Shown: positions 28,480-61,800 of the stretch, piece by piece | Layout: the number at the start of each line of letters is the position of its first letter | Numbering within the stretch: position 1 is the first letter of the stretch | Assembly: GCA_964187785.1 (NCBI GenBank) | Contig: OZ076412.1 | Coordinates: forward strand, 17,980,001 to 18,044,000 | From: Amphiscolops sp. MND2022 | Taxonomy: Eukaryota | DNA: 64,000 nucleotides | Direction: 5' to 3' | Translations under genes and position numbers: made by a program | Notes under the pieces: model-generated | The model's database searches: none | What the model saw: only the letters and a program-made list of their open reading frames with translations | Told to the model about the DNA's origin: nothing

Positions 28480-28613
28480 AATTTCCAACATGGTCACTCA
28501 TACTATGACCATTATCGTTGCCATGCTAGTCATAATGTGACCCTCTTATGATAATCATTTTCCACCATGATCATACTATGGCATAGTATGATTCACCATT
28601 TCTGAGTGTTGGG
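28480..28613. mobile_element. CATACTATGA-rich MITE-like segment; related segment at 27840-27930
   Basis: Repeated CATACTATGA/TCATAGTATG motifs at both loci. Confidence 0.4.
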
Positions 28614-29191
28614 CTCAACATGGGAAGTATAAAATAGAAGATATAAGTGTAAGAGCCACGTCCCGTGGTGTCTCTCAGATCACCTACGGACCGTGAGTCC
28701 TTTTTCAATATCTTAGTTCTTAAGCCAGATGAGTCATTCCTATCCTCCTGACTACTAGGGGACGTACTGGCCTCAGTGTCCCTGTTCCCTGAAGACGACA
28801 TTGAACTCACAATGTTTTGTATTTCTGGTAACACCTTCTCTGTTATTGCGGTACTGACTGCTCTATTTATTTGGCTATGTACCATGGCCATCATAGAATC
28901 CATTTCTTGAGACAACCTAAGATTAAATTCATTTGAAAAGGTTTCAAAGGATTGTCTTATGTCATATCGACCATGAGGCTCATTTCCTTGAATGAAATCT
29001 CCAAGATCGTTTCTTGAGTGATTACCAATTCCTATATCACCATGAATGGAAGATTGGTCTATTACATCTGCTAACTCTCTTTCCAAAGGATTTTCACTCC
29101 CTATCATCACGTCTAAATTATCCATATCGGACAACATGTCCATCTCTTTGGATTTTCTAGCTTTCGCTTTCTGTCTTCTTGTGGAAGGCAT
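28571..29191 (-). CDS. LTR-encoded gag-like ORF N-terminus (about 181 codons inside the LTR, reading out into the flank)
   Basis: Uninterrupted 206-aa ATG ORF MPSTRRQKAKARKS.... It is homologous in style to the relic at 35687 (TRKQK..SDVMSDLE..SQI..AI.E..LP.IQN). Confidence 0.7.
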   Translation of the reverse strand: MPSTRRQKAKARKSKEMDMLSDMDNLDVMIGSENPLERELADVIDQSSIHGDIGIGNHSRNDLGDFIQGNEPHGRYDIRQSFETFSNEFNLRLSQEMDSMMAMVHSQINRAVSTAITEKVLPEIQNIVSSMSSSGNRDTEASTSPSSQEDRNDSSGLRTKILKKDSRSVGDLRDTTGRGSYTYIFYFILPMLSPTLRNGESYYAIV

Positions 29192-30281
29192 AAGAGTTTA
29201 TTGCAAGAGGTAAGAATTTAAATTAAGTTCTCAGGCTTGCAAACAGAGTATGTTGAAACGATTTTAACAAATTTGAGTATTACGGTATCGAGGAAATTGA
29301 AAAAGTTCTTGGGACCTAGGGTCCACGGTATATATACTCAGGTTTACATGACTTGCAAAATAATGAGGGTCACGTTCTAAAAATAGCCTTCACAACTATC
29401 TAAAAATAGCACCTACTATTTATAGCCATGAAGGCGGCATGACGAAAGGGTCACTTCAAAAGGGGTGATTTTATTCAAGCGCCTTCAACAATTCCATATA
29501 TAGAAGGATTGTAGGTCCAAGCATCCCTCAAGGCCTTTCGTATGTAAGGTTAAGCAACATTTCATGCAATTGCATTTGATCAACTATAATTTACATGTAC
29601 CAACTCATTAATCTAAGTATTCATGTAAATTATTAATATCTAGCATCAAATGGTACAAATGGTTCAGTAATCTTCATCAAAACGAGTATTTATTAGAAAC
29701 ACCAATCATAGCCTTTATTTACCACTGTAAATTGCACTTTACTTCAATTTGGACTCAGTGTCCATTTACCGTAAATAGGCAGCAAGTTACTGCTAGCTGA
29801 CGGCGCGTGGCCTTTGAGTCCTTTAATTTAGAGTACTGCGCACAGTGAATGAAATGAATGGCGTGTTCTGATTGGCTAAGAATTTGAACGGACTGCGTGT
29901 CCAGCGAGACAGGAAAGGAAACATTTGAACTCGTTTCCTTTGCCTGTACGCCTTGGTGTCCAATTTCTTAGCTAATACATTTAAACATACATTATTTACA
30001 TGCATCAATATATCAAAATCAACTTCAAAGTTTTCAAATAACCAAATGGTATTTCCGATTACTAATTTGCACAAGATTATATATATAAGGCTGTCAAAAC
30101 TGAAAACAGAATAACAGACATGCCATAAAATATTACAAATTCAGTTTGAAGTTTTTGTCCCGTCATGACAATGGGACGCATGGTCCTTTCTTCTAATTTA
30201 TTGTTAGAGTACCTGGGAGGGCGCGAAAACAGCTGTAATTGATGGTGTAAAAGTTCCCATCGCAGGCGGGAGCCTGCGACA
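28648..30281 (-). mobile_element. Solo LTR, 1634 bp, with 5-bp TSD ATAAG
   Basis: Minus strand TGTCGC...TCTTACA; ATAAG at 28643-28647 and 30282-30286; CTATAAATAG at 29416-29425; CCAAT box at about 29866. Confidence 0.9.
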
Positions 30282-30755: not shown

Positions 30756-30815
30756 AACCATGTTTTACCATCTTAACCATGTAACCATCTTAACCATCTT
30801 AACCAAACCATCTTA

Positions 30816-31002
30816 CCCAGGTTGTCTGTCATGGCTCGTTCATGAAAAATCATTCATGATCATGGATTGTTCGACGCATTACTCCTACTTTCATGGAAAA
30901 TCATGGATGACCTATGGCAGGGCATGGCCCCATGGATCATCATCCATGATTTTGACCCATGATTCATCCATGATGAGCCATGTTGAAAATTTCGTTCAAA
31001 GT
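30816..31002 (+). mobile_element. CATG-rich dispersed repeat, homologous to part of the satellite monomer
   Basis: TA|CCCAGGTTGTCTGTCATGG...GCCATGTTGAAAATTTCGTTCAAAG aligns with 56408-56582 and later monomers. Confidence 0.85.
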
Positions 31003-33025
31003 TCAATAGAGTCGAACACCGAAGACTTTCTTGAAATAAGGTAAGAAAATCAAGCGTCTAGAAATGGATTTAGTTCTTTTTTCATTGTAACTTACGTTGT
31101 ATCAGGAAACGGTATCATTATTATTCAAATTGAAAAATGGAAGAATACGACACTGTTATGATTCAAACCCAAACCTATTCTTGGTGTTACCCAAAACAAC
31201 TCTGCTTCCAGATATGACCAACAAAAGTAAAGATCTCCTAGTGGAAAGAATAATTCTTTGGTGAAAATCGAAGAGTACTGAAAAAAAGTTGAAAACAAAA
31301 AAGGTTAAAAGAGGTCCTCCTACAACCTGTATGAATATTAAATTCGCACGGTGCCAAAGTCGCACGGTGACAAAAAATTGCTTAGCAGACCCAAAAAAGT
31401 TTTTGATCAAAAACGTCAAGAGTCCTCCTCAAGAACGAATTCTCAAAAATTTTGCCTACTGCCGGAAATTCCCAGATTGTCTCCACCAGTCTTTTATTTG
31501 AGTTTAGTTTCTGAAAAAAAACGAAGCGGGTCGTTCGTTATCCTGAGTGCACTTGGGGTCCCTAAAGCTTCAGCCGAAAATGGCAAAACCATGAATTATT
31601 TTTTTTTGTTAGTCAATTAGGAAAACGTTTAACCTAAATTGCAGGTCAACTTTTGACGTCAAGATCAAATCATATTGAAGTTCCAAAGTTCAGATTTCTA
31701 CTATATCAACATTTTTTCACATATTGCGCTTTTTCACCCTCGGTGACCTAGATGGTTTCCCACGTTATTTTTTTCCCTTTCAACATAATCTCACTCATGT
31801 ACCAATTGATTGAATGCAAGTGCATCTAGTTAGAAGCAATGCTATGGTACATTCTTCAACTGTCACTTTTCTGAAGTTTAATCTTTCATCAATACCCCTA
31901 CTTTGGCAAAGACAACATCACTTTTACTGTCTCTAGCCATCTAAGCTCAGTTCGATTCTCAACGACGTTACTTGTATTCGATCATCGAGAAAACGAAACC
32001 CTTGTTGAAATTGCTTGAACTGTAAGCATGCACTTTGATACTGGCAGCAACTTCTTTAAGGTTTTCTTAATTTCTCTCTGAAACTTTTATGCAAAAAGTA
32101 CAATCTGTTGTATTCGACATTTATCAAGTTGCTTGAGAAATTCGTCGAAGGTTTGACGGCAATTTTAAGCCTTGAAGTTTTACAAATTTCACTTAGAGTA
32201 AGTGCTAATATTAAATTCAAAAGTTGCTATCAGCAATACTGCATTTCTAGCTGTTATTACGTAAATGCCAGGAGGAATTTGTTCAAAGGTTATCCTCAAT
32301 TCATTTGCCAGCCTTTTTCGCAGTGGCATTGAAATTTTTTGTTCAATTCGACTAATTCGTCTGCCCAAAAATCAGACACGTTTTTTTTATTCTTTGACAA
32401 GAAAAATATAGTATACTTTCCATAGTCGAGATTGCTTGATTTTTTTACATACTGCATGGGCATAAAAAATGGAAAATTCAGGGAGCATACATGGAAACAT
32501 TTTGTGGATTACAATGCAGTTTCCACTATTTCAATTGAAACTGAAAACTTTTCCACTTCTTCGCCGGCGCGATCACTTTGTTTTCACGCGTAAGTTTCTC
32601 AAGTGAGTACCTTATGTAATCACCGTTAGTCAGACAGTACGCTGAATATGACGCTACTTTGAAACTTACCATGTGCCTGAAGTTTTTTTTGAAAACGCGG
32701 TAAAATTGATGAAGGTCTCAACTGCTTTCAAAGCTAGAACTGCGTCTTAATGAAACCTGCACAACTTTGCGGCTCAGAATTTTCGCCAAATTTGGGATGC
32801 ATCTTATGGTGTCTGGTCACAAGTCAGAAAGAATAAAACTTTTTCTGGTCCGATAAGATTTCAGAAATCCCAGCGTCGTTCAAAGGTAGTTATCTTCACT
32901 CGTCCAATTTGATTGGCTCACGGGGTTGAACCGGAGCGAAGTCAGTTCAAAAATGTAAAAAAATGAATTTTTCAATTTCCCCTATTCAGCTATGTTCATA
33001 TACCGCTAGTGCCCTAAATGCAGGA

Positions 33026-41900: not shown

Positions 41901-42297
41901 ATGTGGTCTGAAGTTGCTATGAATAACCGGTGGTATCCAGCTAATCTACGTCCTCAGGATCACATCACTGCGTGAATAACCTATAACAACAGGAACACCG
42001 ATGAATTTCAACAGAGATAGGAAACACTTAATCTTCCAGCACAACAGTTCTCGAGCAATGAATTAACACAATATGTTAATAAGAGAAGACAATTGAAGAA
42101 CGAGTTCATTGGCGACTGTCTACCCGCCCCGCGAGCTGGGGCACATTTCGGACACTGCTGTGGCAACACTCACTCAGACGGCATTCTAGGGTGTTGGCAT
42201 TAAAATTACAAAAAGCAAAAAAGTTCATTTTAGCAATGCGTGGCGCACTATTTTCGATCATGAGTTGAGCTTTTTTGTGATATTTTCACACTTTTTT

Positions 42298-42747
42298 GTC
42301 GATAGCTCGTTTCCGCGAGCAAAAGCTACAGATGACACATCGGTAGTCCATTGGTGGATATTGTCGATAGCTCGTTTCCGCGAGCAAAAGCTACAGATGA
42401 CACATCGGTAGTCCATTGGTGGATATTGTCGATAGCTCGTTTCCGCGAGCAAAAGCTACAGATGACACATCGGTAGTCCATTGGTGGATATTGTCGATAG
42501 CTCGTTTCCGCGAGCAAAAGCTACAGATGACACATCGGTAGTCCATTGGTGGATATTCTCGATAGCTCGTTTCCGGAGCAAAAGCTACAGATGACACATC
42601 GGTAGTCCATTGGTGGATATTGTCGATAGCTCGTTTCCGCGAGCAAAAGCTACAGATGACACATCGGTAGTCCATTGGTGGATATTGACGATAACTCGTT
42701 TCCGCGAGCTAACGCTACAGATGACACATCGGTAATCCATTGGTAGA
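42298..42747. repeat. 65-bp minisatellite, about 7 copies
   Basis: Units at 42298, 42363, 42428, 42493, 42558 (64 bp), 42622 and 42687 (diverged). Confidence 0.95.
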
Positions 42748-42749
42748 CC

Positions 42750-43308
42750 ATCGGCGGACTGCGACTTGTTGCCAAGCCGGAGTGCCAAACGGTTTGTGAA
42801 GCTAATACAGTTTTCTTATTTCTTTTAGATTGGAAAAAAGTTTTAATTTCGCGTTTTTTGTTAGAGTCCCTCTTTTCAACTACTTTAGGCACTCTAAATC
42901 TTCCCTTTTTCGGCTTTGTGAGACTTTTTTTGAAAATTTCCTAATATCTCCAGAGGGTCCTCCTTCAATTGTTAAAATTTTTGCAACAGAATGGCAAACT
43001 TTTTACGGCACTATGAGACTGTTCAATATTTCGTTTGATATTAGTTTTTCTAAAGATAAAACCACCAATATTAATCATCAATACTATACGAACTTCTAAT
43101 GTAATATTCGGAGTGAAGCGCTATATCCGAATATTTGACGTTATGTCCGAACTATATTGTGTTTTACTACGGAGGAGGCAGAGGTTCAAAACGCTATATC
43201 GGAACTCCTGGAAGCGTTTTCCAAGCACAAAAGGCAACAATTGGGTGTTTCGACACTTTTGATGAGTTTTCAGAGCTTTAAGTATAGCGCCGACTTGAGA
43301 CATTCCCG
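42750..43308 (+). mobile_element. Diverged Helitron-like family copy cut at its 3' end by the LTR
   Basis: TATAGCGCCGACTTGAGACATTCCCG|TGTTACG; family motifs GTGAGACTTTTTT. Confidence 0.5.
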
Positions 43309-45021
43309 TGTTACGAATATTTACTGGGGTGGTTTTAGAGCTAGTCGCAATGTTGTTTTAACAGGTGTTGACGTTCTGGCAACGGAGATGTTTTCTGGCT
43401 CAGAATCAAAATCTTAGTCATTAGTGCAAGTGGGGCGTTTTCTACTTAAAGGTGCTATCAATTTGAGCATTGCCTTTTGGTTCTCAGCTAGTATTTTTGA
43501 CAGATCAGATAAGATTTCTTTTCTCAAAGACGTTTTTATTTCGTCTAAGTTTTCTGGCTCAACCCTGAGAGATTTAATAGGACCTGCGACTAAATCCTCA
43601 GACGGGATATTCTCGTTTACAGGGGTTTCGAAATCTCCAGAAACTAGCTCAGCTACAACTTTCCTCTTCTGGCTTCTAGTTGTCGTTTTCCAGGTTGAAA
43701 ATTCAAAGTCTTCAGTGAAACTAAATTCTTCGAAGAAAAAATTTTTTTTCGTTTTTGCAACGGAACTATATTGATACAAAGCGATATCACAATTGACTGA
43801 ACTTTACATGTGTGTCCTGCATATTTATACCTTTCCAGCATCATTTGTTCCTCACCTAAAAATTCTTAGGTATCTTAAAAATCGGGATTGATCATCAAAA
43901 AGAGCTTATGATTCAAATTATTTCAGCCTCGCGTCATAAAATAAGGTATCGAAAGTCCTAGTTGCGTCGTTATTCCGTAATACTTGTTGAAATCATTCTT
44001 GCTCAGACAATTCCATTTCCTGTTTAAGTCTCAAAATTGCGGCAAAATAAAGGTCTAGCTGAGATTTTCATCGACGAACGGACGCCGACGTGATCAATTA
44101 GTCACTTCCCAAGTTAGGAAGTTAGTGTTCGAAGCAAAAGTATGACACTCAAAAATATTGACGGAAATGAAGCGGAAAAAAGGAATGTAAAAAATGGGAA
44201 ATATCTAAACACTGGAAAGGAACAAACGATGCTGAAACGGCATATCACAAATATCAACTCAAACAAACATTCATCATTCCTTTAACAATAGGATGGGTTA
44301 AACACAAACATTAACAATTACAACGAGGACAACCCGTGTGTATAAAACATCATCATTATCAAAATTAGAAGAATAGTGTAAAATTTTCATTTATCAAAAT
44401 AGGCAACAGACTAGCATCGAATAGGTAGCCTCTCATGATTACAGTAGTGTCACAAATTACAAGGAAACATTTGAAAAGTGCGTGGATCTTACGCTGCATT
44501 TTTGGTTTCATTGTCAAAATGTATCTTCCATAAAATGAAGCTATTCAATTGGAACTCCTTTGTTGATGAGTAAATTGCAACGTAAGTCAACCGTATTTAC
44601 CCTTGGCAGCATCAAATTATAACTTTAGTTTTTCTTACAGTACAACTTTTCCCTATATGAAATCCTATTCCAAAGATCACTTAAATGCGTCGATTCAAAA
44701 AGGAACTAAGTCAAAATTCCGTTTGTACCAATATCTCATATCCACAGTTTTACAGTTTGCTCCGTAAATGCTCCGTATGTATTGAAATTAGTAATAGCTA
44801 ACCAGCGGAATACAATTTTACAATCCGCTCGGTAGTCGTTTCGTACGTATAAAGGTTAGTTATAGCTGAGCGGCGGTGGTTATCGGAGAGAAAGCGCAGC
44901 GCGTATGCGAATTCATTCTCTTTCTCTTAGGTAATTGGCGTTGCTAGGGGCAGCCGAGCACAATTTTATCGGCACGAGCTTAAATAGTTCAATTAAGGAA
45001 CGACGCTATTGCTCCGTAAAA
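43309..45021 (-). repeat. 3' LTR (1713 bp)
   Basis: Colinear with 54018-55743 (about 9 differences in the first 135 bp); the ORF start codon is mutated to ACG at 43684-43686. Confidence 0.92.
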
Positions 45022-45471
45022 ATAGAAACACCCATTATTAGCTCAGTTGAGTGACGCTGTCATATCGTTGAAAACATTTGCTTAAAATCACTTGACTGAG
45101 GCTTTAAGTGAATATTGACAACTACTTTGATATCCGTGAAACCATTTCACTATATTTTATATGTTTTGCATTTCAGATTGATTGAACTCCGTTGGGATCT
45201 CGGAGTTAAATTTTATCTGTGATGTTTTCATTTTAGCGTGGAACAAAAGAAAAAATGGTCCCGCTTAGAAAAACGTTTCTGTTTTAATATTTAGATTAGT
45301 ATGCCAAATTTCAGAAGACAATACCGGAAATAAAAATAGCGTTACGCGTGAAATCATTAAACCGGAAGTTTTAGCTATTCCGAGATCATTTCTGAAAATA
45401 TTCCGTGACGCTTACGTTAAACTTTTGTGATCGGAAAATCATTCACCAGTTCTTTAGTTGTACTGTAAGTA

Positions 45472-46038
45472 TTGATTAAAATAGCTTCAATAAGCTTGTT
45501 GTTCAGTGGTATTTGCAGTAGCTGCGTCCTCTTCTCCTTCCCAATATGTGTCGGCAGTCAGTCTTTAGATCAGAAGGTGCCCGATCTCGAACTCCTTCCG
45601 TTAGCTGAGGTGGTGACTTGTTTCGAGGGAGAGCATCTTCCTGTGTCAGTTGTTTGTGGGAGTCCGTCTCTCATCCGCGTGTTGGATGATAATCGAGCTG
45701 ACGGTCGTCGATGTATGGTGTTGCATTCATTTAATGAAGATGTGTTCCTTCAGTGTTTTCGGCAGTCACATCAGGACGTGTTTGGTATGCTAGAGGTGAC
45801 AACAGCCCTCGAGTACGTCATTCATCGTTTGAAGGGGTCTCTTTATGAAGACTCGACCGAAGATAGGCCTCTCTTGCGGAAGTGTATCCGTGAGGGGTCC
45901 GTTGCATTCAGTGATCTGCGAGATGTCTTGAACTTTGGCCCTCGATTCGTCCTTATATCCGTTACACTGGCCATCCTCATTTCAAGAGCACCGTTGATCG
46001 AGTACGCCTTTTGTTTTCGCGTGTTGCTTCCGTTTTAG
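45472..46038 (+). CDS. Antisense accessory ORF A of the Gypsy element, unknown function
   Basis: 188 codons without a stop, coding-like composition, between pol and the 3' LTR on the opposite strand; the true start is probably near 45530. Confidence 0.6.
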   Translation: MIKIASISLLFSGICSSCVLFSFPICVGSQSLDQKVPDLELLPLAEVVTCFEGEHLPVSVVCGSPSLIRVLDDNRADGRRCMVLHSFNEDVFLQCFRQSHQDVFGMLEVTTALEYVIHRLKGSLYEDSTEDRPLLRKCIREGSVAFSDLRDVLNFGPRFVLISVTLAILISRAPLIEYAFCFRVLLPF

Positions 46039-46379
46039 GGTTTAGGTTTTGGGTCGTTTTGGGTAGGGTGGTGTTTTTGTCCTTGACGTTGCCTTGACAT
46101 TGTTATAGGATAGTTGTATTATTTTAGTTGAGAGGTACCGACTTTGAGATGATTTCCGATAGCCTGATCGTTCATCGGTTCGGCTTCCTTCGATTACTTC
46201 TAGACACCCGTGAGTATGATATTTTCCGTTATGTGTCCGTAACTCCCACTGACAATTGTGAATAGTTTGTCAGGATTTCTGTTATTTGGGACTGTTGCCT
46301 GCTATTGATCTGTTTTGTTTTGGTTGTGTTCTTCCTCGCCCTCACTTTCTTTTAATTGTATGCTCGTGTTTTGTTTTAG

Positions 46380-47594
46380 ACTACATTAATTTCAGAAAGC
46401 TACAACAATGCCGATCAGATTATGCTTTCCATGGGTACAGCGAGGTGTGCAATTTCGTCTATTGTTTGCTGATCCGAATTGCCTGGCATCCATGAATGGG
46501 AAGGTTATATGGACACGTCTAAATTGTCAACTCTTGCTGTTATTGCTGTGGAAGAGTTCCTGATGGATTGTGAGTTCGGACGTGATTTGGCTGATACGAA
46601 GTCAGGTGAAATGCGAGAGTTCCGTGTTAAGTGTCGGGAATGCATCGATCGGTTTGTGTTCCTGATTCTGGATAACGTAACCGTGACGTCTGGCATCTCA
46701 CACGGGCTGTACAGTTTTTGCCCGGAAACTATGTTAGAGGGTGATGACCAGCATGTGTTTGAGTTATTCAATCCACTTTGTGAGTTATTTTCGACATGCA
46801 ACGTGTTATCTTCTGATTAGTTGAAAGCTGCCTCTGCTGAATACAAAAGTTATGTCGTGGAGAAACGGAGGCATCACGAAAATGCTATGTACGCTGCAAA
46901 TGAGATTCATGATGTGGTGCAGTTTCTTCTACGAGACTTTGGTTTCCAGTCCCGTACGCATATATTGCAATTGTTCAAGATCTGTTGCCTTATTGTTGGG
47001 ACACCTGATAGCGATCCTCCTGCGGTGACCATCGATTTAATTGGCAGTACACTTAATCAGTCCAAAACTGTGTTCTGATGGTACAGTCTCACGTCCTCGG
47101 CTCGGGTTTCAATCCGCAATTGTTCTTTTCTGGACCTTTGCTAAATGCTGTTCAGAGGGCTTTTGCGAATGCAGAAGTCTTCTTCGTCAGTGGCGATGTT
47201 GATGTATGGAAACATTTCCGATTGAGTGATGTCGCTGTTTTTGTGGGTCCTTATTCCAGAGTTATTTGTTGGAGCGACGCCAGAGTTGTGAGACATACTA
47301 TATTGAGTGCAATCGAGCAAACCGGAGTTCTCGCGAGAGTCAAGTTGGCAGTTCAACTGATGCTGGGAGCAGTACAAGTTCCGTAGTCAGTTCGAGGAAA
47401 GGAAAAGGTGTCAGTCCTAAGTCAGTTGTTATGAACAGTTAAAAGAATGTTTCTGTGTGTGCTTCTGCGAGTAAACCCAGCGGGTCGTCGAAGAAGGAAG
47501 GCGGAGGCAGTATTGCGATAAAGAAGGCAAAAAAGAGTTCGAAGAGGGGTGTTCCTGATCCCACTGTTAATCATAAAATTGGGAAACTTTTTTA
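46380..47594 (+). pseudogene. Antisense accessory ORF B (about 400 codons, broken), unknown function
   Basis: Track ORFs 46479-46820 and 46821-47078 share a frame across one TAG; frameshift into 47078-47386; basic/Ser-rich tail; acceptor-like TTTTGTTTTAG| at 46379. Confidence 0.6.
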
Positions 47595-47912
47595 ACGATC
47601 GATGTGCTGTCTCTCAATCAACTGTGACTCTTGGCATTTGTATTTATGATTTGATGATAGCCTCTTGTTGTAATTCTTTAGGGCACGTTAGCTGTACGTT
47701 TTTTTTTCGTTTCTTTTTTGAGAAAAAAAACGTTGCCATTCCGGTTCAGTTTGGTATCTTATTCTTTTCGCCTAGTCTTGAGTTGGACGCATGTGTTCCG
47801 TAGTAACTGAGTCAAGCATTCTGAAGTCAGGGTTAATGTTGGGTCTCGGATTAGGTCGCAAGTTGTGTCTCTCCTTTCTTCTAGGATTGTATCCTATAAC
47901 TTTGGCGGTAGT

Positions 47913-50900
47913 TCAGTAGTTTTTTTTGGGGGGTGGGCTTTGTATAGGCGGCGGAGTCAAAATATAGGGATTGTCACTGACATCTAGATTAAATGACGTA
48001 ACGTTATCGGAGGATGTTTTATCCCCGTCAGAGTTTTCAACTGTGGCTGTTTTAGCCACTTCATTTTCCGTTGTAGTTGGGTCATCTGTCTTGTCTGCGA
48101 TCTCGGTGATTGTAGCTTCTTCTATTGAATTCTGCGTAGGCGTTCCGAACAGAACTTCTCCGAATTCGGTTTCCCAAGCTTGCGCGTACCAATCATTGGG
48201 GGTTGTTTTAACCTCTGGATCTGGAAGGTAATCTTCCCTTCTGACTGTTACGTCAGGTACTCGCTGATTGGGCGCATATAGCCTTAGGCGAATTCTATGG
48301 AGGGTTTGCGTGTATCGTGTACCCGTGCGACTTACGACATAATTGTTATTTGGAAGCACTTTGACGTTTACGTAAGGACCAGTGCAGATGCAATCTTTGA
48401 AGGCGAATTTCAATGACTGGTTGTCCGCTTTCGTGTTTAAAACGTAGCAGTAGTCGTTGACCTTGGGAGGCGTAGCAGCCGCTTTCTTGTCGTAGTATTG
48501 TTTGTACTTGAGATATGATTGCATCAGAATATCTTTAACAGCTTGATGGATCTCGGCTATTTGTTTCTGTAGTTGGTCCGTTAAGTCTTCGTTGCCTTTT
48601 TTCCATTGGTTTTAATTCAAGTTCGATGTCTAACATATTGTACGGAATGCGTTCGTGAAACACTGTTGTAGGTTCACTTCCCAAGCTCTCATGATAGCTT
48701 GTGTTGTAGTTCATGACGGCAATCTGGACATATTTGTGCCACATTGAGCGTCTTTCACCCGTTGTTATTTTTAAGGAAGTCTTCAGAGAGGCATGCGTTC
48801 TTTCTAATGTGCCTATTGTTTGCACGTGTTTCGTCGATGCGTGGCTTATCCGTATGTCTAGTGTTTGGGCTATCTGATTGACCACTTTTGATCTGAATTG
48901 TGATCCTTTATCTGTTAGTATGATAGTTGGTAGATAGCAATGTCGTGTCATTTTATCGATTATGCAACGGGCCACTGTCGTTGCTGTCATATCTTGAGTT
49001 GGGTATGCGAAAAAGTAGCGTGAGAAGACATCCATTTTCGTTATGATGTGTTGAAATCCATTGAATGATGGTAAGTTTCGTAATATGTCGACTTCTAGAC
49101 AATCTTCTGGTCCCACTTTGAATTCAGTGTTGCTCAACATTCTGGGACGTATTTGTCTCGTGTCCATTCTCTTGTTGACAATACAATTTGGGCAATTAGT
49201 TACCCAGGCTCTGATTTTTCGTGCTAGTCCCGGAAAATAGTATTTGACTCTACATTCCTGTATCATCTTCGTTATTCCCGGGTGTTTGTTTGTTTTTCCA
49301 TGTAGTGTGGACAAACGATCTGGGACTAGGTGTTTCAGGATTATTATTTGGTTGTGTGTGACTGATCCGTCTTCTCCGAAGTACTTTCGCATTAGGACTC
49401 CATTTTTCATTGTGATTCTTTCTTCGTGACGTAAAAGATTTCGTCCTCTCGGTTCAGTTTAAAGGAGGTGCTTGTCGTATTCTTCATGTGATATCCGTAG
49501 TTTCAACGCTTTGAGGAGGGGATCCGCCTCTTGGTCGTTTCTGATCCTGCTCGTTTCTGATCCTTGCGTTCTCTTTGATTGCGCCGAACGAGTAGACTGC
49601 GGAGTTGAGAGGTATATTGTTGATTTCAGTTACTTTGGTTGATAAGTCTTTTTCGTGTTCTTCCTGGGCGCGTTGTTTGCTTTGTGCTTTCCTGGAAAAA
49701 ATTTCTTGTTCGGATTCTTCTTCTTCATCTGGCAGGAAGAAAAGTTGTTCTTCGTCTGCAACGTCTGATGATTGTAAGTTGACTTCTATTGGTGACGTTA
49801 AGATGTCGTCTCTTAGCTTTAATTGTACTTTTTCTTTTGGAGAGAGTTCGAGTGTTGAGAGGAAGTCTGCTGCCGTGTTCTGGGAGCCTGCTTCGTGCAT
49901 GATTCGGAATTTAAATTGAAGGACATAGTCGCAGGCATTCCGAAGTTCGGGTGGCGTTGTTTTTGTCTAGAAAAAACTTGTTACTGAGCGGTTGTCTGTT
50001 AAAACTAGCGTCGATATCGTTGTTTCCCATAGGATGTGACTATATTCAAGGAATGCGTGGTGTATAGCCAAAAACTTTTTACAGTAGATTGACATCTGTA
50101 GTTGCGCTGGTGAGAAAACACGTGACCCGAGCGCTACAGGCGCGAAAGTTTTCTTTTTGGAGAGGAGTTTTCTTTCGTCATTTTCTTCTATCATTAGGGT
50201 GTAGCCCGATGTTCGGAAACTTGCGTCCGTCATTAGGACGTATTGTTTTCCTGCTATGGGTTGTCTGAGTGCAAGACCGCAGGCTTCCGCTAGGCTGGCG
50301 TTGTTTCTTTGAAGTTGTCGACAAGGTCTTCGAGATTCTAATTTTGGAGTTGGCTTTCAGCAGTTCGTACATACCAATGAGTTTTTCTGATAGGCGCGGT
50401 ATGTAGTTTTGGTAGTAATTGACGAAGCCGATGTATTTTTGGACTTGTTTTTTAAATTTCGGGAATCGAACTTTTGAGAGAATGTTTTGACTTTTTGATC
50501 TTTCGGGGCTACTCCGTCTTGGGTGATGGTTCGGCCGAGAAATTCGACTTGTGTTATACCAAAATGACATTTTTCAATGGTCAATTTTAGTCCCGCTTTC
50601 CGTATACATTTGAAGACTGCTCTGATATTTTTGATGAGTTGTTCCGCTGTATTTGCGGCTATGCCAATATCGTCAACATATTGTGCACACTGATCTGCTT
50701 TGATGACTGAGTCGAGGTACTCCCACATGAAGCTTGAGACGGCTGACAGCGCTCTACTTAGTCCTTGGGCTAGACGATGGTAGGCAAACGTCCTACGTCC
50801 TACTAGCAAAGTTAAAAGCAAGTAATTTTACTGACCTTTCCTCTGCCATTTGGAGGCAGTGATACGCCTGGGAGCAGTCGAGTTTGCAGAACAGTTTTTT

Positions 50901-52340
50901 CCCTGCTAGGTGTTGTGCCGCATCTGAGAGGGTGCTGACAGGGTGGTTGTTGTTGATATAGTCATCTGCATTGAGGGCATTGATTTTCCGCAGATCCACC
51001 AATAGTCTCAGCTTGCCGTTGGGTTTTCGTTGTGCGAATATGGGGCTGGCATATTTGGAGAATGGGAGTGAGGTGATTATGCCGTATCTATGCATGATGG
51101 CCAGTTCTACCGTTAAATCTTCCTTGAGATTGATTGGGACTAGTAGGCTTGGTGTGTATACTGGTTTGTCGTCTTGTGGGGTTAAACTGACTTTAAATTG
51201 CGTATTCATTCCGATATCCAGTCTGTGACGGGCGAAGATGTCATGGAATTCGACAATGGTGTTTTCTAGGTTATCACGGTCTCTTCCCGTGATTAGTGAA
51301 ATGGTCCATTTGAACATTGTAAGGAACTTGTTCAGGGATTCTTCGTTTTCAATTGGATCAAGTTTTTCTAGTTCGGCAAGTTCCGGTAGTTCTTTCAAGA
51401 TTCGCTTTTGTATGGGCGAGTGTTCTTGTTCATTGCCGGGGTTTTCTGGGGTTTGGTACCAAAATTTTTCTTCATTATCCTCCGGTCGTTCTACTTGCAT
51501 TAGTGCATTGATGTACGTTACTAAATCGTTGTGTTCTCTGAGGAGATTGAGAGCTGCAATTTCCACTGGGCGGATCATCTTCGTTTCTTCTGGTTTGAGA
51601 GTCTCTAGTTCAGCTATTTTGGTATCTGTAGCTCTTGTATAAGGAAAATCTGTTGTATTGGCGATCTTTATTGTCACCTTTTTGTCTCTGGCAGTTGTTA
51701 TTGCCGGAGCTACCATTACTTTTGAACATTCGTCAAACTGTGGTAGGGGTTGAATTGTTCCAGTTATTGGATGTTCGGTACTCACTGGTATTGATGCGTG
51801 GATGATGCGTGTGGCATGTGCAGGTATCGTATGTTTTGATTCTGTTTTGATCATGATGGGTTTAGGGTTGCACTTTTGCATTTCGTCGGTGAGCGCCATC
51901 GTGATTTGGATCTTCGGGAAGTCAATTGTCCCTTGTGCAGTGTCTAGGATTGCGGCGTGTTTTCGGAGGAACGCTAATTCTTTTATGGGGAATGATGTTT
52001 GGTTCATGACAATGAACGTTTCTTCAAATGTGTAGTCCCCGATTTTGAAACGTAGAGTGTACGTGGCGAGTGGTTGTTCCATTTCGGCGTTAGCCTACTG
52101 CACTTTGAAAGGGGGTGGGGGTACTCTTGGCGATGCATTGACCAGCATTCTGTCGAAGTTGTCCGGCGTCCCTTTCACTAATAGCGCTAATGTACACACT
52201 TGAGTCGACTAAGACGTCGATTTTGACAGTGTTGAATTCAACTGGTAGAATACGCCATCGTTTTTTTTTCTTGAGTGCGATTGTAGACATTAACGGAATG
52301 TAGTCGTCATCTTTGTCGTGCTGGATGAATTCTTTGATGA
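47913..52340 (-). pseudogene. pol: Gypsy pol, frameshifted
   Basis: PR: VLVDSSVYISAI. RT: KYASPIFAQRKPNGKLRLLVDLRKIN, KLDCSQAYH, QYVDDIG. RH: MTDAS, VLTDNRSV. IN: HPGITK..CPNC, TDKGSQF, LERTHASLK, GPY motif. Confidence 0.93.
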
Positions 52341-52939
52341 CATCTAGATCTTCGGGTAGTTTTGAAGGACATTCCGTTTTTTCTTCGGCTTTGCTCTAGC
52401 GGGTGCGGTTTTTGGAGGTGATGCAGTAGGATCGGTTTTTCCTCGCTGTTCGCTTTCTTGTTGTGCCAATATTGTTTTATCTTCGATGCAGATGATGTTC
52501 TCTGCGTTTATCGGTGTGAACGGGATGGTGACGGGTACTATCGGGGAAGGTGTTGTCCTTTTCAGGATTGGTGACGGTGGTGATGGTAAATTTGTTGTTT
52601 CTGAGGGCTGAGCTTGAGGGTTCGGAACCTGGATTTTGAAAGAGAGTTTATTTGTGTCATATATGGTTGGTTCGTCCCAAAGATCACATCTATAGTCCCA
52701 GTCATATATGTAAATGCGTTCGGTTTTAGACTCTGGCAGAGGTCTTTTGAGTGTCGCATAATTATCCGGCGACTCCGTTATCCATTGGGGTAGTGGTGTT
52801 GGATCTTCTGTGTGTCTGGCATTATGTCTAAGTATCATGCCGACGTTCCAGCGACGCTGCCAGTCTTGGGTTGGTTCTTCGTTGCATTCCGTGAAAAAAT
52901 CCTCTTCGTACCTATTTGGGGGGTCTTCGATGGTGCACG

Positions 52940-52991
52940 CCCTCGCGTCCACTTTTTCCCCAAAGCGTAGGCGCGGCGATTTTAGTTTTTA
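52940..52991 (-). promoter_or_regulatory. Candidate -1 ribosomal frameshift signal at the gag end
   Basis: gag frame ends GCT AAA AAC TAA. The -1 frame runs open into the 52344-52952 ORF. A GC-rich stem (CGCGCC/GGACGCG) starts 9 nt downstream. The heptamer T AAA AAC is imperfect. Confidence 0.5.
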
Positions 52992-54396
52992 GCTTGGGTC
53001 GACGTGGTAGGTACGGGTTGTTTGCTGATCTTGTTCGTTGGGATGGTGACTTCTCGTTAGCATTTCCTGGGGTCATTTGCCGCATTAGCTACGTCCCAAC
53101 AGTTCTCAGTTTTGTGCATCTTTCCACACGTATCGCATTTGGGCGTTAGTGGTTCATTTTGATTTGAATCTTTTTTGTTCGTTTTTGTGTTGGCGTAGTA
53201 TCGCTCTTTTTGAAGTCGGCAACACTTTTGTGCTTTGCAGTGGCCACATTTGCCACAGTGGAACCAATACCCTCTTTGCTATTGTTCTTTCATTTCATCC
53301 GCCACTGCGTCGTCCACTGTGTTAAGGGGGACTAGGGTAGTTTCATCAGGCGCGCCTAGTCCGTTTAATTGCATCTCTCGTTCAAGATGCAGAACGATAT
53401 CGTTGTAAGGCTTGTCTTCTAAGTATGCCCTGTTGAGAATCTTTTTAACGTGGTCTGGCGTTTTAGCGTATATTGTTTTATCAATGAATTTTTGTGCCTC
53501 AGATCCAAAGGCTTCTTTTGCAGTTTTTCGCAATGTGCCAAGGAATTCCTGGAGTTTTTGCTTGGTGGGGTCGAAATGCAACGGGCCCCATTCGCATCTT
53601 GCTTTGGCGGAGGACTGAAAATCGCCTAAGCGACGTTTGAAAGCCGTTATGACTTCTTCCAAATTATTCTTTTTAGTGTCGTCGAGATTACAGTACGCTT
53701 GGAGAGCATTCCCTCGTAGCAATAAGTGGAAGTAATTTGTTTTTTGAATCTCTGTGAGATGAGGGTACATTTTGATGTTATTTCGGAAAAGGTCCTCAAA
53801 AAGTTCAAACTTTTCGGACAACCGTCGAAAACTGGAAGCGAAGCAGTGAGCGCTTTCGGCATTGGGAGTAGGTTGGCAAATGGGAATGTCTGCGGTTGGG
53901 GTGCGAACAGTGTTTTAGATTTTGAGGGACGCTCTTTTGTTAATTCGCCAGATGCACGTTGTTGTTTCGGTCTTTTGGTGATTTGATTTGTGGAGTCATT
54001 GAGGACTCCTGTCACCATGTTACGACTATTTACTGGGGTAGTTTTAGAGCTAGTCGCAATTGTTGTTTTAACAGGTGTTGACAATCTGGCAACGGAGATG
54101 TTTTCAGGCTCAGAATCAAAATCTTGGTCATTTGTGCAAGTGGGGCATTTTCTACTTAAAGGTGCTATCAATTTGAGCATTTCCTTTTGGTTCTCACTTC
54201 GTACTTTTGAAAGATCAGATAAGCTTTCTTTTCTCAAAGACGTTTTTGTTTCGTCTAAGTATTCTGGCTCAGTCTTGAGAGTTTTACTAGGACCTGCGAT
54301 TAAATCCTCAGACGGGATATTCTCTTTTACATGGGTTTCGAAATCTCCAGAAACTAGCTCAGCTAAAAGTTTCCTCTTTTGGCTTCTAGTTTTCAT
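52982..54396 (-). pseudogene. gag: Gypsy gag, starting inside the 5' LTR
   Basis: ATG at 54396; capsid-like FELFEDLF..LLRGNALQAY; zinc-knuckle-like HCGKCGHCKAQKC and CDTCGKMHKTENC; at least one frameshift and a stop. Confidence 0.85.
54003..54017 (-). promoter_or_regulatory. Primer binding site, tRNA-Leu-like
   Basis: TGGTGACAGGAGT directly after the LTR end ...AACA; 12/13 match to TGGTGTCAGGAGT. Confidence 0.7.
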
Positions 54397-55743
54397 TTTT
54401 CAGGTTGAAAATTCAAAGTCTTCGGTAAAATTAAATTCTTCGAAGAATGTTGTTTTTTTTTCGTTGTTGCAACGGAACTATATTGATACAGAGTGATATC
54501 ACAATTGACCAAACTTTACATGTGAGTCCTACAAATTTATACCTTTCCAGCATCAATTGTTCCTCACCTAAAATTTCCTAGATATCTTAAAAATCGGGTT
54601 TGTTCATCAAAAAGAGCTTATAATTCAAATTATTTCAGCCCTGCGTCATAAAATCAGGTATCGAAATTCCTAGTTTCGTGGTTATTCCGTACTACTTGTT
54701 GAAATCATTTTTGTTCATACAATTCCATTTCCTGTTTAAGTCTCAAAAGTGCGGCAAAACAAAAATCTAGCTGAGACTTTCATCGACGAACGGACGCCGG
54801 CGTGATCAATTAGTCACTTGCCAAGTTAGTAAATTAGTGTTCGAAGCAAAAGTATGACACTCAAAAATATTGACGGAAATGAAACGGAATAAAGGAATTT
54901 ACAAAATGGGAAATACCTAAATACTGGAAAGGAACAAACAATGCTGAAACGACATATCACAATTATCAACTCAAACAAACATTCATCATACCTTTAACAA
55001 TAGTATGGGTTAAACACAAACACTAACAATTACAACGAAGACAACCCGTTTGTATAAAACATCATCACCATCAAAAGTAAAAGAATAGTGTAAAATTTTC
55101 ATTTATCAAAATAGGCAACAGACTAGCATGGAATAGGTAGCATCTCATGATTACAGTAGTGTCACAAACTCAGGAAATTTCAAGCAAACGTTTGGAAAGT
55201 GCGTTGATCTTACGCTGCATTTTCGCTTTCATTGTCAAAATGTATCTTCCATAAATTGAAGCTGTTCAATTGGAACTGCTTTGTTGATGAGTAAATTGCA
55301 ACGTAAGTCAACCGTATTTCAGCCTTGGCAGCATCAAAGTAATACTTCAGTTTTTCTTACAGTACAACTTTTCCTTATATGAAATCCTATTCCAAAGATC
55401 ACTCAAATGCGTCGATTCAAAAAGGAACTACGTCAGAATTCCGTTTGTACCAATACCTCATATCTACAGTTTTACCGTTTGCTCCGTAAATGCTCCTTAT
55501 GTATTAAGATTAGTTATAGCTAACCAGCGGCATACAATTTTACAATCCGCTCCGTAGTCGTTCCGTACGTATAAAGGTTAGTTGTAGCTGAGCGGCGGTG
55601 GTTTTCGGAGAGAAAGCGGAGCGCGAATGGGAATTCATTTTCTTTCTCTTAGGTAATTGGCGTTGCTAGGGGCAGCCGAGCACAATTCTATCGGCACGAG
55701 CTTAAATTGTTCAATTAAGGAACGACGCTATTGGTCCGTAAAA
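54018..55743 (-). repeat. 5' LTR (1726 bp)
   Basis: Pair of 43309-45021; abuts the PBS; TATAAAT at about 54535. Confidence 0.92.
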
Positions 55744-55805
55744 ATTCTGACGTTTTTGGTACTTTGAGACTTTTTCTATGTTATTTTATGTGCAGTCGGG
55801 AATAA

Positions 55806-58800
55806 CTCCTAAAGTTATACGTGACCAACATAGAGTTCAAAAGAAGGCATGAACTAGAACCAGTCAAGTGGTTCATTGAAAATTTGATTGTAAAACAGTA
55901 TGTAATCTACGCTTCTTTTTTTCGAAAATTCTTGTTACTAAACCCTCTTTTCAGTTCACTTTTATAGAAAATGTAGCCCTAGTCTAGTTTGTATCTAGTT
56001 CAATGCCTCAACCGATTTCGACCTGAATTCTGCAATAAAATGGTCTGATACTATAGACTCAGACAATTTATAAAAATTGTGTGCTTGTATAGTTGTGTTG
56101 TCCTATTTTTATGATGCTCTTTTACCGAATACCTGTTTGCTTAGTGCATATGATACATTGTTCATAAAAAGATAGAACAAGATTGAAAACAGCTGATTTG
56201 CAATGAAGATATCTCTTTTATAGAAGGGCTAGAATTCAATATAACGCAGTCAGTATAACCCTTAAAGTTATACGTGACCAACATAGAGTTCAAAAGAAGG
56301 CATGAACTAGAACCAGTCAAGTGGTTCATTGAAAAACAGATTGTAAAACAGTATGTAATCTACGCGACTGCGCCGTTTTTGAAATTGAAGAACTTTAAGT
56401 TGTATTTCCCAGGTTGTCTGTTATGACCCGTTCATGGAAAATTATCTTTGATCCTGGATGTTTCGACGCAATACTTCTAGTTTCATGGTAAATCTTGGAT
56501 GGCCCAATTGCAGGGCATGGCCCCATGGATTTTGTCCCATGATTCATCCATGATGAGCCATGTTTAAAACTTCATTCAAAGTCGAAAATGTTCTCATTCT
56601 GAGTCAGATTGTGTCTCTTGTTCTGTCTCTTGTTTCTGAGGGTTACCTTAATAGCCTGGATAGAATTAAGGACGCTTTTCAGCACCGCATTACCTGAAGC
56701 CTCGAGATAGGTAAGGTTTAAGTTCGCATTAGGTGGGCTTTTGATGGTTTTTGGGATGGTTTTCGATGGAAATGCCTAAAAACGCGTCTTTTGAGATCAA
56801 TTTTAGCGAAAATGTAGAATTACTCTAGTTCGTATCTAGATCAATGCCTCGACCAGTTTCGACATGAATTCTGCAATTATATGGTTAAATACCTATCAAT
56901 CGTACTGTATTTTTGTTGAATTCATGTCTTTTTTTTCGAAAAATCTTGTTACTAAACTCCTCTTTTCAGCTCACATTTATAGAAAATGTAGCCCTAGTCT
57001 AGTTTGTATCTAGTTCAATGCCTCAACCGATTTCGACCTGAATTCTGCAATAAAATGGTCTGATACTATAGACTCAGACAATTTATAAAAATTGTGTGCT
57101 TGTATAGTTGTGTTGTCCTATTTTTATGATGCTCTTTTACCGAATACCTGTTTGCTTAGTGCATATGATACATTGTTCATAAAAAGATAGAACAAGATTG
57201 AAAACAGCTGATTTGCAATGAAGATATCTCTTTTATAGAAGGGCTAGAATTCACCATAACACAGTCAGTATAACCCTTAAAGTTATACGTGACCAACATA
57301 GAGTTCAAAAGAAGGCATGAACTAGAACCAGTCAAGTGGTTCATTGAAAAACAGATTGTAAAACAGTATGTAATCTACGCGACTGCGCCGTTTTTGAAAT
57401 TGAAGAACTTTGAGTTGTATTTCCCAGGTTGTCTGTTATGACCCGTTCATGGAAAATTATCCTTGATCCTGGATGTTTCGACGCAATACTTCTAGTTTCA
57501 TGTTAAATCTTTGATGGCCTATGGCAGGGCATGGCCCCATGGATTTTGACCCATGATTCATCCACGATGAGCCATGTTGAAAACTTCATTCAAAGTTAAA
57601 AATTTTCTCATTCTGAGTCAGATTGTGTCTCTTGTTCTGTTCTGTCTCTTGTTTCTGAGAGTTACCTTAATAGCCTGGATAGAATTAAGGACGTTTTTCA
57701 GCACCGCATATCCTGAAGCTTCGAGATAGGTAAGGTTTAAGTTAGCATTAGGTGGGCTTTTGATGGTTTTTGGGATGGTTTTCGATGGAAATGCCTAAAA
57801 ACGCGTCTTTTCAGATCAAATTTAGAGAAAATGTAGAATTACTGTAGTTTGTATCTAGATCAATGCCTCGACCAATTTCGACCTGAATTCTGCAATTATA
57901 TGGTTTATTACCTATGAACCGTACTGTATTTTTGTTGAATTCATGTCTTTTTTTTCGAAAAATCTTGTTACTAAACTCCTCTTTTCAGTTCACTTTTATA
58001 GAAAATGTAGCCCTAGTCTAGTTTGTATCTAGTTCAATGCCTCAACTGATTTCGACCTGAATTCCGCAATAAAATGGTCTGATACTATAGACTCAGACAA
58101 ATTATAATAATTGTGTGCTTGTATAGTTGTGTTGTCTATTTATATGATGCTCTTTTACCGATTACCTGTTTGCTTAGTGCATATGATACATTGTTCATAA
58201 AAAGATAGAACAAGATTGAAAACAGCTGATTTGCAATGAAGATATCTCTTTTACAGAAGGGCTAGAATTCACCATAACGCAGTCAGTATAACCCTTAAAG
58301 TTATACGTGACCAACATAGAGTTCAAAAGAAGGCATGAACTAGAACCAGGCAAGTGGTTCATTGAAAAACAGATTGTAAAACAGTATGTAATCTACGCGA
58401 CTGCGCCGTTTTTGAATTTGAAGAACTTTAAGTTGTATTTCCCAGGTTGTCTGTGATGACCCGTTCATGGAAAATTATCCTTGATCATGGATGTTTCGAC
58501 GCAATACTTCTAGTTTCATGGTAAATCTTGGATGGCCCATGGCAGGGCATGGCCCCATGGATTTTGTCCCATGATTCATCCATGATGAGCCATGTTGAAA
58601 ACTTCATTCAAAGTCGAAAATTTTCTCATTTTGAGTCAGATTGTGTCTCTTGTTCTGTCTCTTGTTTCTGAGAGTTACCTTAATAGCCTGGATAGAATTA
58701 AGGACGCTTTTCAGCACCGCATATCCTGAAGCCTCGAGATAGGTAAGGTTTAAGTTAGCATTAGGTGGGCTTTTGATGGTTTTTGGGATGGTTTTTGATG

Positions 58801-61800
58801 GAAATGCCTAAAAATGCGTCTTTTCAGATCAATTTTAGAGAAAATGTAGAATTACTCTAGTTTGTATCTAGATCAATGCCTTGACCAATTTCGACCTGAA
58901 TTCTGCAATTATATGGATTAATACCTATGAATTGTACTGTATTTTTGTTGAATTCAATTTTTTTTTCGAAAATTCTTGTTAATAAACCCTCTTTTCAGTT
59001 CCCCTTTATAGAAAATGTAGCCCTAGTCTAGTTTGTATCTAGTTCAATGCCTCAACCGATTTCGACCTGAATTCTGCAATAAAATGGTCTGATACTATAG
59101 ACTCAGACATGTTATAATGATTGTTTGCTTGTATATTTGTGTTGTCCTATTTATATGATGCTCTTTTACCGAATACCTGTTTGCTTAGTGCATATGATAC
59201 ATTGTTCATAAAGAGCTAGAACAAGATAGAAAACAGCTGAGTTGCAATGAAGATATCTTTTTTATAGAAGGGCAAGAATTCGATATAACGCAGTCAGTAT
59301 AACCCTTAAAGTTATACGTGACCAACATAGAGTTCAAAAGAAGGCATGAACTAGAACCAGTCAAGTGGTTCATTGAAAAACAGATTGTAAAACAGTATGT
59401 AATCTACGCGACTGCGCCGTTTTTGAAATTGAAGAACTTTAAGTTGTATTTCCCAGGTTGTCTGTTATGACCCGTTCATGGAAAATTATCCTTGATCCTG
59501 GATGATTCGACGCAATACTTCTAGTTTCATGGTAAATCTTGGATGGCCCATGGCAGGGCATGGCCCCATGGATTTTGTCCCATGATTCATCCATGATGAG
59601 CCATGTTGAAAACTTCATTCAAAGTCGAAAATTTTCTCATTCTGAGTCAGATTGTGTCTCTTGTTCTGTCTCTTGTTTCTGAGAGTTACCTTAATAGCCT
59701 GGATAGAATTAAGGACGCTTTTCAGCACTGCATATCCTAAAGCCTCGAGATAGGTAAGGTTTAAGTTAAGGCTTTTGATGGTTTTTGGGATGGTTTTCGA
59801 TGGAAATGCCTAAAAACGCGTCTTTTCAGATCAATTCTAAAGAAAATGTAGAATTACTCTAGTTTGTATCTAGATCAATGCCTCGACCGATTTCGACCTG
59901 AATTCTGCAGTTATATGGTTAAAAACCTATGAATCGTACTGTATTTTTGTTGAATTAATGTCTTTTTTTTTCAAAAAATCTTGTTACTAAACTCCTCTTT
60001 TCAGTTCACATTTATAGAAAATGTAGCCCTAGTCTAGTTTGTATCTAGTTCAATGTCTCAACCGATTTCGACATGAATTCTGCAATAAAATGGTCTGATA
60101 CTATAGACTCAGACAATTTATAAAAATTGTGTGCTTGTATAGTTGTGTTGTCTTATTTATACGATGCTCTTTTACCGAATACATGTTTGGTTAGTGCATA
60201 TGATACATTGTTCATAAAGAGATAGAACAAGATTGAAAACAGCTGATTTGCAATGAAGATATCTCTTTTATAGAAGGCTAGAATTCACCATAACGCAGTC
60301 AGTATAACCCTTAAAGTTATACGTGACCAACATAGAGTTCAAAAGAAGGCATGAACTAGAACCAGTCAAGTGGTTCATTGAAAAACAGATTGTAAAACAG
60401 TATGTAATCTACGCGACTGCGCCGTTTTTGAAATTGAAGAACTTTAAGTTGTATTTCCCAGGTTGTCTGTTATGACCCGTTCATGGAAAATTATCCTTGA
60501 TCCTGGATGAATCGACGCAATACTTCTAGTTTCATGGTAAATCTTGGATCGCCCATGGCAGGGCATGGCCCCATGGATTTTGTCCCATGATTCATCCATG
60601 ATGAGCCATGTTGAAAACTTCATTCAAAGTCGAAAATTTTCTCATTCTGAGTCAGATTGTGTCTCTTGTTCTGTCTCTTGTTTCTGAGAGTTACCTTAAT
60701 AGCCTGGATAGAATTAAGGACGCTTTTCAGCACTGCATATCCTAAAGCCTCGAGATAGGTAAGGTTTAAGTTAGGGCTTTTGATGGTTTTTGGGATGGTT
60801 TTCGATGGAAATGCCTAAAAACGCGTCTTTTCAGATCAATTTTAGAGAAAATGTAGAATTACTCTAGTTTGTATCTAGATCAATGCCTCGACCGATTTCG
60901 ACCTGAATTCTGCAGTTATATGGTTAAAAACCTATGAATCGTACTGTATTTTTGTTGAATTAATGTCTTTTTTTTCAAAAAATCTTGTTACTAAACTCCT
61001 CTTTTCAGTTCACATTTATAGAAAATGTAGCCCTAGTCTAGTTTGTATCTAGTTCAATGTCTCAACCGATTTCGACATGAATTCTGCAATAAAATGGTCT
61101 GATACTATAGACTCAGACAATTTATAAAAATTGTGTGCTTGTATAGTTGTGTTGTCTTATTTATACGATGCTCTTTTACCGAATACATGTTTGGTTAGTG
61201 CATATGATACATTGTTCATAAAGAGATAGAACAAGATTGAAAACAGCTGATTTGCAATGAAGATATCTCTTTTATAGAAGGCTAGAATTCACCATAACGC
61301 AGTCAGTATAACCCTTAAAGTTATACGTGACCAACATAGAGTTCAAAAGAAGGCATGAACTAGAACCAGTCAAGTGGTTCATTGAAAAACAGATTGTAAA
61401 ACAGTATGTAATCTACGCGACTGCGCCGTTTTTGAAATTGAAGAACTTTAAGTTGTATTTCTCAGGTTGTCTGTTATGACCCGTTCATGGAAAATTATCC
61501 TTGATCCGGGATGTTTCGACGCAATACTTCTAGTTTCATGGTAGTCTTGGATGGCCCATGGCAGGGCATGGCCCCATGGATTTTGTCCCATGATTCATCC
61601 ATGATGAGCCATGTTGAAAACTTCATTCAAAGTCGAAAATTTTCTCATTCTGAGTCAGATTGTGTCTCTTATTCTGTCTCTCGTTTCTGAGAGTTACCTT
61701 AATAGCCTGGATAGAATTAAGGACGCTTTTCAGCACCGCATATCCTTAAGCCTCGAGATAGGTAAGGTTTAAGTTAGCATTAGGTGGGCTTTTGATGGTT

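Follow-up and report, generated by a model that had tools for sequence, protein, structure and literature searches.

The window, that is, the whole 64,000-nucleotide stretch of contig OZ076412.1 analysed here, contains a decayed Gypsy retrotransposon with a 188-codon open frame antisense to its pol gene. We found that this frame is a fused, frameshifted and dead remnant of exon 6 of a larger predicted spliced gene, an artefact of decay. The conserved antisense gene is predicted to comprise eight exons and likely encodes a hAT-type transposase that has lost catalysis and is retained to regulate the element by binding DNA, a reading to which we assign a probability of about 55%. The gene is under purifying selection, its splice sites and their phases are conserved, its mobile copies are flanked by target-site duplications (TSDs), and its tree conflicts with that of pol.

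The open frame is a remnant of an internal exon

The frame runs from 45469 to 46038 on the plus strand (189 codons from stop to stop; 188 when counted from a TTG at 45472) and is antisense to a decayed minus-strand Gypsy gag-pol, between pol and the 3' long terminal repeat (LTR). It is longer than expected by chance, since only 7 of 2000 base shuffles of 45024–47900 reached at least 189 codons. A preliminary description had regarded it as a self-standing accessory gene in the position where env would lie. The position was confirmed by Pfam matches to RVT_1, RT_RNaseH and rve at 47913–52395, and the open frame is indeed present. Its independence did not stand: the open reading frame (ORF) list and the alignments resolve it into an LTR-derived 5' part, an exon 6 remnant and an out-of-frame tail.

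The genome was searched with the DNA of the frame, and 40 of 199 candidates were scored. All 39 non-self matches began at query base 144–152, close to position 45543 of the window, and the segment 45331–45543 aligned with a sister copy's LTR at its U3 end, stopping about 40–50 bp before the edge of that LTR. LTR sequence therefore makes up the first ~25 codons. At 45543/45544, alignments to six sister copies indicated that ~3.2–3.5 kb is missing (5.4 kb in one of the six comparisons, that sister copy being longer). As judged from the intact layout, this internal deletion took the LTR edge, the polypurine tract, a divergent frame termed ORF X, exons 1–5 and 50 codons from the start of exon 6. 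A 13-nt deletion, placed by alignment near 45928, puts the last ~36 codons outside the frame of the family, and the earliest in-frame ATG is codon 83. In intact copies, the matching sequence is an internal exon bounded by AG and GT.

The exon 6 remnant (45544–46001, plus strand) encodes predicted RNase H-like strands and the start of a helical insertion, and it matched exon 6 of an intact copy, L068, at 81.5% and 92% (tblastn, two frames). A tryptophan present in 21 of 22 aligned rows is a serine in the window copy alone. There follow on the same strand the predicted intron 6 (46002–46127; GT/AG kept across subfamilies, length 73–132 nt), with a weakened donor in the window copy, exon 7 (46128–46209; 27 codons, 85% to L068), the predicted intron 7 (46210–46379) and exon 8 (46380–47596, end approximate). 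By comparison with L068, exon 8, which comprises a helical region and a Ser/Lys-rich tail, is broken by 2 stops and 3 frame changes. The downstream frames starting at 46473 and 47057 are part of the same predicted gene of ~1,090 amino acids. Because of the LTR fusion, the 13-nt deletion, the Trp-to-Ser change and the broken exon 8, the window copy is a pseudogene, useful only as a pointer to the gene family.

A predicted spliced gene in intact copies

On the plus strand of L068, eight coding segments of 127, 306, 129, 123, 578, 621, 82 and 1,304 nt are joined by GT-AG junctions with phases 1, 1, 1, 1, 0, 0 and 1, for a predicted length of 1,089 codons. Over 20 copies, donors were kept at 131 of 140 sites and acceptors at 134 of 140, compared with 1,423 of 2,166 other intronic GT/AG; the gene was open end to end in 4 of these 20 copies. 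L070, L089, L093–L095 and L114 lack exactly intron 7, which is present in the sisters L096, L097 and L115. In a distant family (L165–L174), the equivalent of exons 5–8 is a single frame of ~870 codons without introns 5–7 (HHalign 99.8% and 99.9%). These natural controls back the predicted junctions. An upstream AG first taken as the acceptor of exon 6 was dropped; an AG 15 nt further upstream holds across subfamilies. Exons 2 and 3 appear continuous in L070/L096.

Intron 1 (L068:1832–1941) stands out among the introns by its much stronger conservation (mismatch 0.16 versus 0.32–0.46 for the others), even in a subfamily with 55% protein identity. In its fold the ends are paired, with double changes in 3 of 27 pairs. 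An Rfam scan of the promoter region and intron 1 gave no match. This intron may act as a cis element of one strand or the other.

Intact copies have their first ATG ~1.37 kb inside the element. ORF X, a Ser/Thr/Pro-rich frame of 260–316 codons in the sense of pol, starts ~0.5 kb upstream of the antisense gene and points away from it (L034:6542–7489; L175:6677–7471; minus strand). It has no Pfam match. ORF X is common to the intron-rich subfamilies (32–81% identity), the distant family has a frame at the matching place, and in L034 it extends through the polypurine tract into U3. Because the first ATG is so far inside the element and behind this divergent frame, a start in the 3' LTR, where the preliminary description had proposed to map transcription starts, is unlikely. 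We infer that an internal two-way promoter lies between exon 1 and ORF X, as for Grande gene23. Transcription from this promoter and splicing to a ~1,090-residue protein are very likely.

Introns on the strand opposite to the packaged RNA stay unspliced through each round of copying. Since the gene is antisense to the packaged RNA of the element, which would not offer these introns to the spliceosome, its orientation can with good confidence be taken to account for their survival.

The gene is under selection, resides in the element and moves between pol backgrounds

Between two subfamilies, the ratio of nonsynonymous to synonymous substitutions (dN/dS) was 0.09 for exon 6 (bootstrap 0.06–0.15), 0.06 for exon 5, 0.08 for exon 7 and 0.11 for the core of exon 8, with higher values for exons 1–4 (0.10–0.50) and the tail (0.33). 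These are pooled Nei-Gojobori estimates on 6 x 7 related copies, which are not independent pairs. The antisense gene is under purifying selection, and the conservation in other copies that the preliminary description had proposed to check is thus established.

The gene also proved, as that description supposed, to be a component of the retrotransposon. In 8 of the 9 full-length copies examined, 5-bp TSDs enclose the whole LTR-gene-LTR unit, which indicates that the gene belongs to the element and is not a separate insertion with its own TSD. Among 20 ten-kb stretches taken from divergent matches, an opposite-strand integrase was found just downstream of the gene in all 20 and a reverse transcriptase (RT) in 19. 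Four copies of the distant family share the layout, with RT at 74% and integrase at 51–54% to those of the window's family, and their LTRs are 99.1–100% identical. Protein searches of the genome returned at least 94, 102, 108 and 54 matches, partly overlapping, and the LTR pairs of carriers are up to 99.9% identical; the carriers are abundant and recently active. More distant homologues were noticed on short database contigs (P0061, P0210 and P0211 at 45–48% to P0214; P0177 and P0151 lower), which suggests from sequence that lineages other than those sampled also carry members of the gene family.

The gene and pol have different histories. In 15 pairs of the intron-rich group, RT was 89–100% identical versus 46–86% for exon 8; copies with a 100% identical RT may differ by half in exon 8, and near-identical integrases (98–100%) are paired with exon 8 at 47–71% identity. 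The RT and integrase trees both separate two pol clades, which are mixed in the exon 8 tree. The pol tree supplied the clade names in advance, before the exon 8 tree had been inspected. An approximately unbiased test on the exon 8 tree (21 rows, quick tree; L124 excluded for short coverage) rejected keeping pol clade I together, with p 1.3e-5. The antisense gene thus evolves as a cassette that moves between pol backgrounds.

The protein is predicted to resemble a hAT transposase that has probably lost catalysis

The top fold match of the predicted structure was Hermes, the alignment spanning finger, core and insertion in order over 238 residues. An N-terminal CxxC..H..H finger was found in 20 of 20 and 22 of 25 rows. 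It gave a local match to a hAT BED profile, scoring above shuffles, and did not match Pfam zf-BED; it may also be a matrin-type finger. An invariant tryptophan (36/36 rows) was aligned to the TRW motif (Hermes W319) in a non-significant HHalign extension, the preceding arginine being absent. The preliminary description had noted no recognisable motif. This holds in Pfam for the flagged exon alone; the whole gene has the zinc finger and, by prediction, an RNase H-like fold. The protein also has an acidic, Ser/Thr-rich N-terminus, basic clusters and a basic tail. It does not have the features of an env product, namely sense orientation, a signal peptide and a transmembrane anchor: the gene is antisense, and the maximum Kyte-Doolittle 19-mer is 1.7.

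Neither the DDE triad nor CxxH was found at the predicted sites, whose positions were assigned by eye and model. An acidic residue occupies the candidate position of the second Asp in 0 of 22 and 2 of 36 rows, the CxxH candidate reads F..E/D in 22 of 22, the first catalytic candidate is Glu in 13 of 36, and the third is not common to the lineages.

Several searches returned nothing of use. With window frames, exons and full-length homologues as queries, Pfam gave no informative family and no match to Transposase_28 (PF04195) at E up to 1–10, and Dimer_Tnp_hAT (PF05699) had no match in exon 8 or the full-length homologues. Two profiles searched against PDB sequences had no match below E 0.28; HHalign against Ac-type and Tip-type hATs remained under 3% probability; and gene profiles compared with frames of hAT-bearing loci (98 frames from 40 loci and 2,030 from 60) produced no convincing match. 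A search of the genome for DUF4371 found no match and is uninformative. The structure model of exon 8 resembled generic helical bundles only, and ESM Atlas offered no usable match for exon 6. A likeness to HECT was dropped, the HECT clusters of ESM Atlas scoring 0.76, below the useful range. Around the gene in two copies, inverted repeats were short and at chance level only, although old repeats could have decayed.

The protein, with its finger and the predicted helical linker, RNase H-like strands, insertion with its Trp and C-terminal helices, probably derives from a hAT transposase and is no longer capable of DDE catalysis.

The element and its surroundings

The element is of the Ty3/Gypsy type, with gag and a pol in the order protease, RT, RNase H and integrase (Pfam on the window and on an intact copy), and with TG...CA LTRs, a primer-binding site (PBS) and a short TSD in full copies. 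In the window it lies on the minus strand. The 3' LTR (43308–45543) is without its U3 edge; its part 44631–45543 matches the LTR of intact copies, which is ~2.2 kb long. Pol (47913–52988) is decayed, a sister copy having an intact pol of 1,770 amino acids. The decayed gag (53279–54399) has its first ~128 codons within the 5' LTR. The PBS (53996–54016) follows the 5' LTR immediately, starting with TGG after the LTR-terminal CA, and the 5' LTR (54017–55745) is truncated ahead of a ~1-kb tandem array. The frames of gag, protease, RT, RNase H and integrase are all broken (Pfam). The direct repeats 43306–45023 and 54015–55745 are 91.7% identical (Kimura two-parameter distance 0.081 over 1,718 sites). 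Because both LTRs are truncated, the window copy has no scorable TSD.

The gag frame begins inside the LTR, ~128 codons upstream of the PBS and in frame (54017–54399 of the window, minus strand; L035:8599–8984). At the border, the final A of the LTR and the TG of the PBS form an ATG, and this layout is repeated in the distant family. In a sister copy, part of pol is duplicated in tandem over 3.7 kb at 99.4% identity (L044:2351–9823).

Just past the truncated 5' LTR, the tandem array (55792–64000) consists of at least 8 units of ~1,010 bp that are 90–98% alike; a ~190-bp piece of the unit recurs at 30813–31006. A 65-bp tandem repeat (42252–42812) lies close by on the outer side of the 3' LTR. 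A second, unrelated and decayed Gypsy pol with RNase H and an integrase zinc finger lies at 21628–25311 (plus strand), and a 208-codon frame at 28571–29197 (minus strand), probably in a solo LTR, resembles the N-terminal part of Gag that the LTR encodes in a related family. Elsewhere in the genome, L202:3042–7100 holds an open Copia-type polyprotein of 1,353 codons adjoining a hAT remnant. A cohesin gene of this genome matched the human SMC1A entries of the PDB at 313 bits, well above the 202 and 174 bits of the yeast SMC1 entries, which is consistent with an animal host without proving it.

Discussion

We propose that the antisense mRNA from the internal promoter would be spliced and translated into a nuclear protein, the finger of which would bind short motifs in the LTR or internal DNA of its own family. 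Its acidic N-terminus may activate the element or shield it from silencing, so that transcription would be promoted or protected, by analogy with VANC. This role is possible, with the odds somewhat against it. If the DNA-binding role holds, the fast divergence and cassette swapping would be a reflection of family-specific pairs of protein and motif.

The product of the same spliced gene could instead act after reverse transcription, binding the cDNA or the integrase complex for nuclear entry or target choice, as has been proposed for plant aORF-3R proteins (PMC7264820). Scaffolds of the transposase type do bind DNA ends, and the basic clusters would suit such a role; yet a tight partnership with integrase is difficult to reconcile with nearly identical integrases (98–100%) being paired with exon 8 at 47–71% and with the movement of the gene between pol backgrounds, and we consider this explanation unlikely. 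A little less probable is an RNA-acting protein with a matrin/U1-type finger, whatever its origin, that would export, protect or package the element's RNA or counter small-RNA silencing, because the finger matches a hAT BED profile and Hermes aligns in order across finger, core and insertion.

Truncated transposases can act as self-limiting repressors. The DNA-binding anatomy would be the same for a repressor controlling copy number as for an activator, and self-regulation is described as common in transposons in the accessible part of PMC6719617. However, the carriers are abundant and recently active, and the acidic N-terminus would fit activation, which leaves self-limitation with a small chance. 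The genome is rich in hAT transposases (150 Dimer_Tnp_hAT matches scored) and the fold is transposase-like, but a nested hAT transposon, a passive cargo or an active transposase is very improbable and was already disfavoured, given dN/dS of about 0.1 within the retroelement, a position and orientation constant in every context examined, second-Asp and CxxH candidates that are not conserved, and no inverted repeat standing out around the gene in two copies.

The closest known systems are the antisense accessory ORFs of plant and fungal LTR retrotransposons, to which the preliminary description aptly compared the frame. Antisense ORFs of the aORF-3R type lie between pol and the 3' LTR in maize Grande (gene23), rice RIRE2, Silene Retand, PvRetro13 and the fungal Boty (PMC7264820; accessible part of PMC11963269). 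An upstream promoter of its own drives Grande gene23, the protein of which is nuclear, and the origins of aORF-3R genes are mostly unknown, without similarity to other transposons (PMC7264820). The accessible part of PMC11963269 reports TRP28 in 97% of Retand clusters and a predicted DNA-binding Transposase_28 (PF04195) domain in Retand ORFs. The present gene shares position, orientation and retention in most copies, with dN/dS about 0.1, the copies having been found via the gene itself so that gene-less copies were not counted. It differs in its probably animal host, seven predicted introns, ~1,090-residue product, zinc finger and RNase H-like fold. Unlike Retand, it has no PF04195 match, and the word 'Intron' is absent from the accessible part of the Retand paper (PMC11963269).

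With hAT transposases such as Hermes (PMC10368747, also the source of the BED finger features, and PMC4763223, in their accessible parts), it shares the C-C-H-H finger and, by prediction, would share the helical linker, RNase H-like strands and insertion with an invariant Trp. It differs in that the sites predicted for DDE and CxxH do not preserve them, only the finger matches a hAT profile, no terminal inverted repeats were seen in two copies, and it has an extra acidic N-terminus and basic tail and lies inside a retrotransposon. HBZ is a small basic leucine zipper protein. It too is an antisense-encoded nuclear regulator from the 3' part of a retroelement, HTLV-1, but it is driven from the 3' LTR, whereas the present gene has its coding start ~1.4 kb into the element and encodes an unrelated protein (PMC7264820; accessible part of PMC11963269). 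VANC of the Arabidopsis VANDALs (accessible part of PMC6719617), an element-encoded and family-specific accessory protein, is proposed as a functional analogue; VANDALs are DNA transposons, and no homology is claimed.

In agreement with the preliminary description, which knew of no characterised animal equivalent, no intron-bearing or transposase-derived antisense gene of an animal Gypsy was found in the literature searched, with partial coverage that did not extend to Repbase-type annotations, supplements or most subscription papers. The accessible parts of PMC5408684, PMC8220671 and PMC6431247 contain no animal antisense coding case. To the known plant and fungal ORFs, the present work adds an example that is large, young and spread over several families, with a fold that can be traced.

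By placing it on the opposite strand, a retroelement can retain a gene rich in introns, and this clade records intron differences between lineages of one element. More speculatively, and rather doubtfully, an animal Gypsy clade would have domesticated a hAT transposase, introns included, in antisense, and the dead enzyme would serve as a swappable, family-specific anti-silencing or transactivating factor, an animal retrotransposon's counterpart of VANC. If so, one class of mobile element would have tamed another. The different cassettes on near-identical pol constitute a natural experiment on whether transposon-encoded counter-silencing occurs in an animal.
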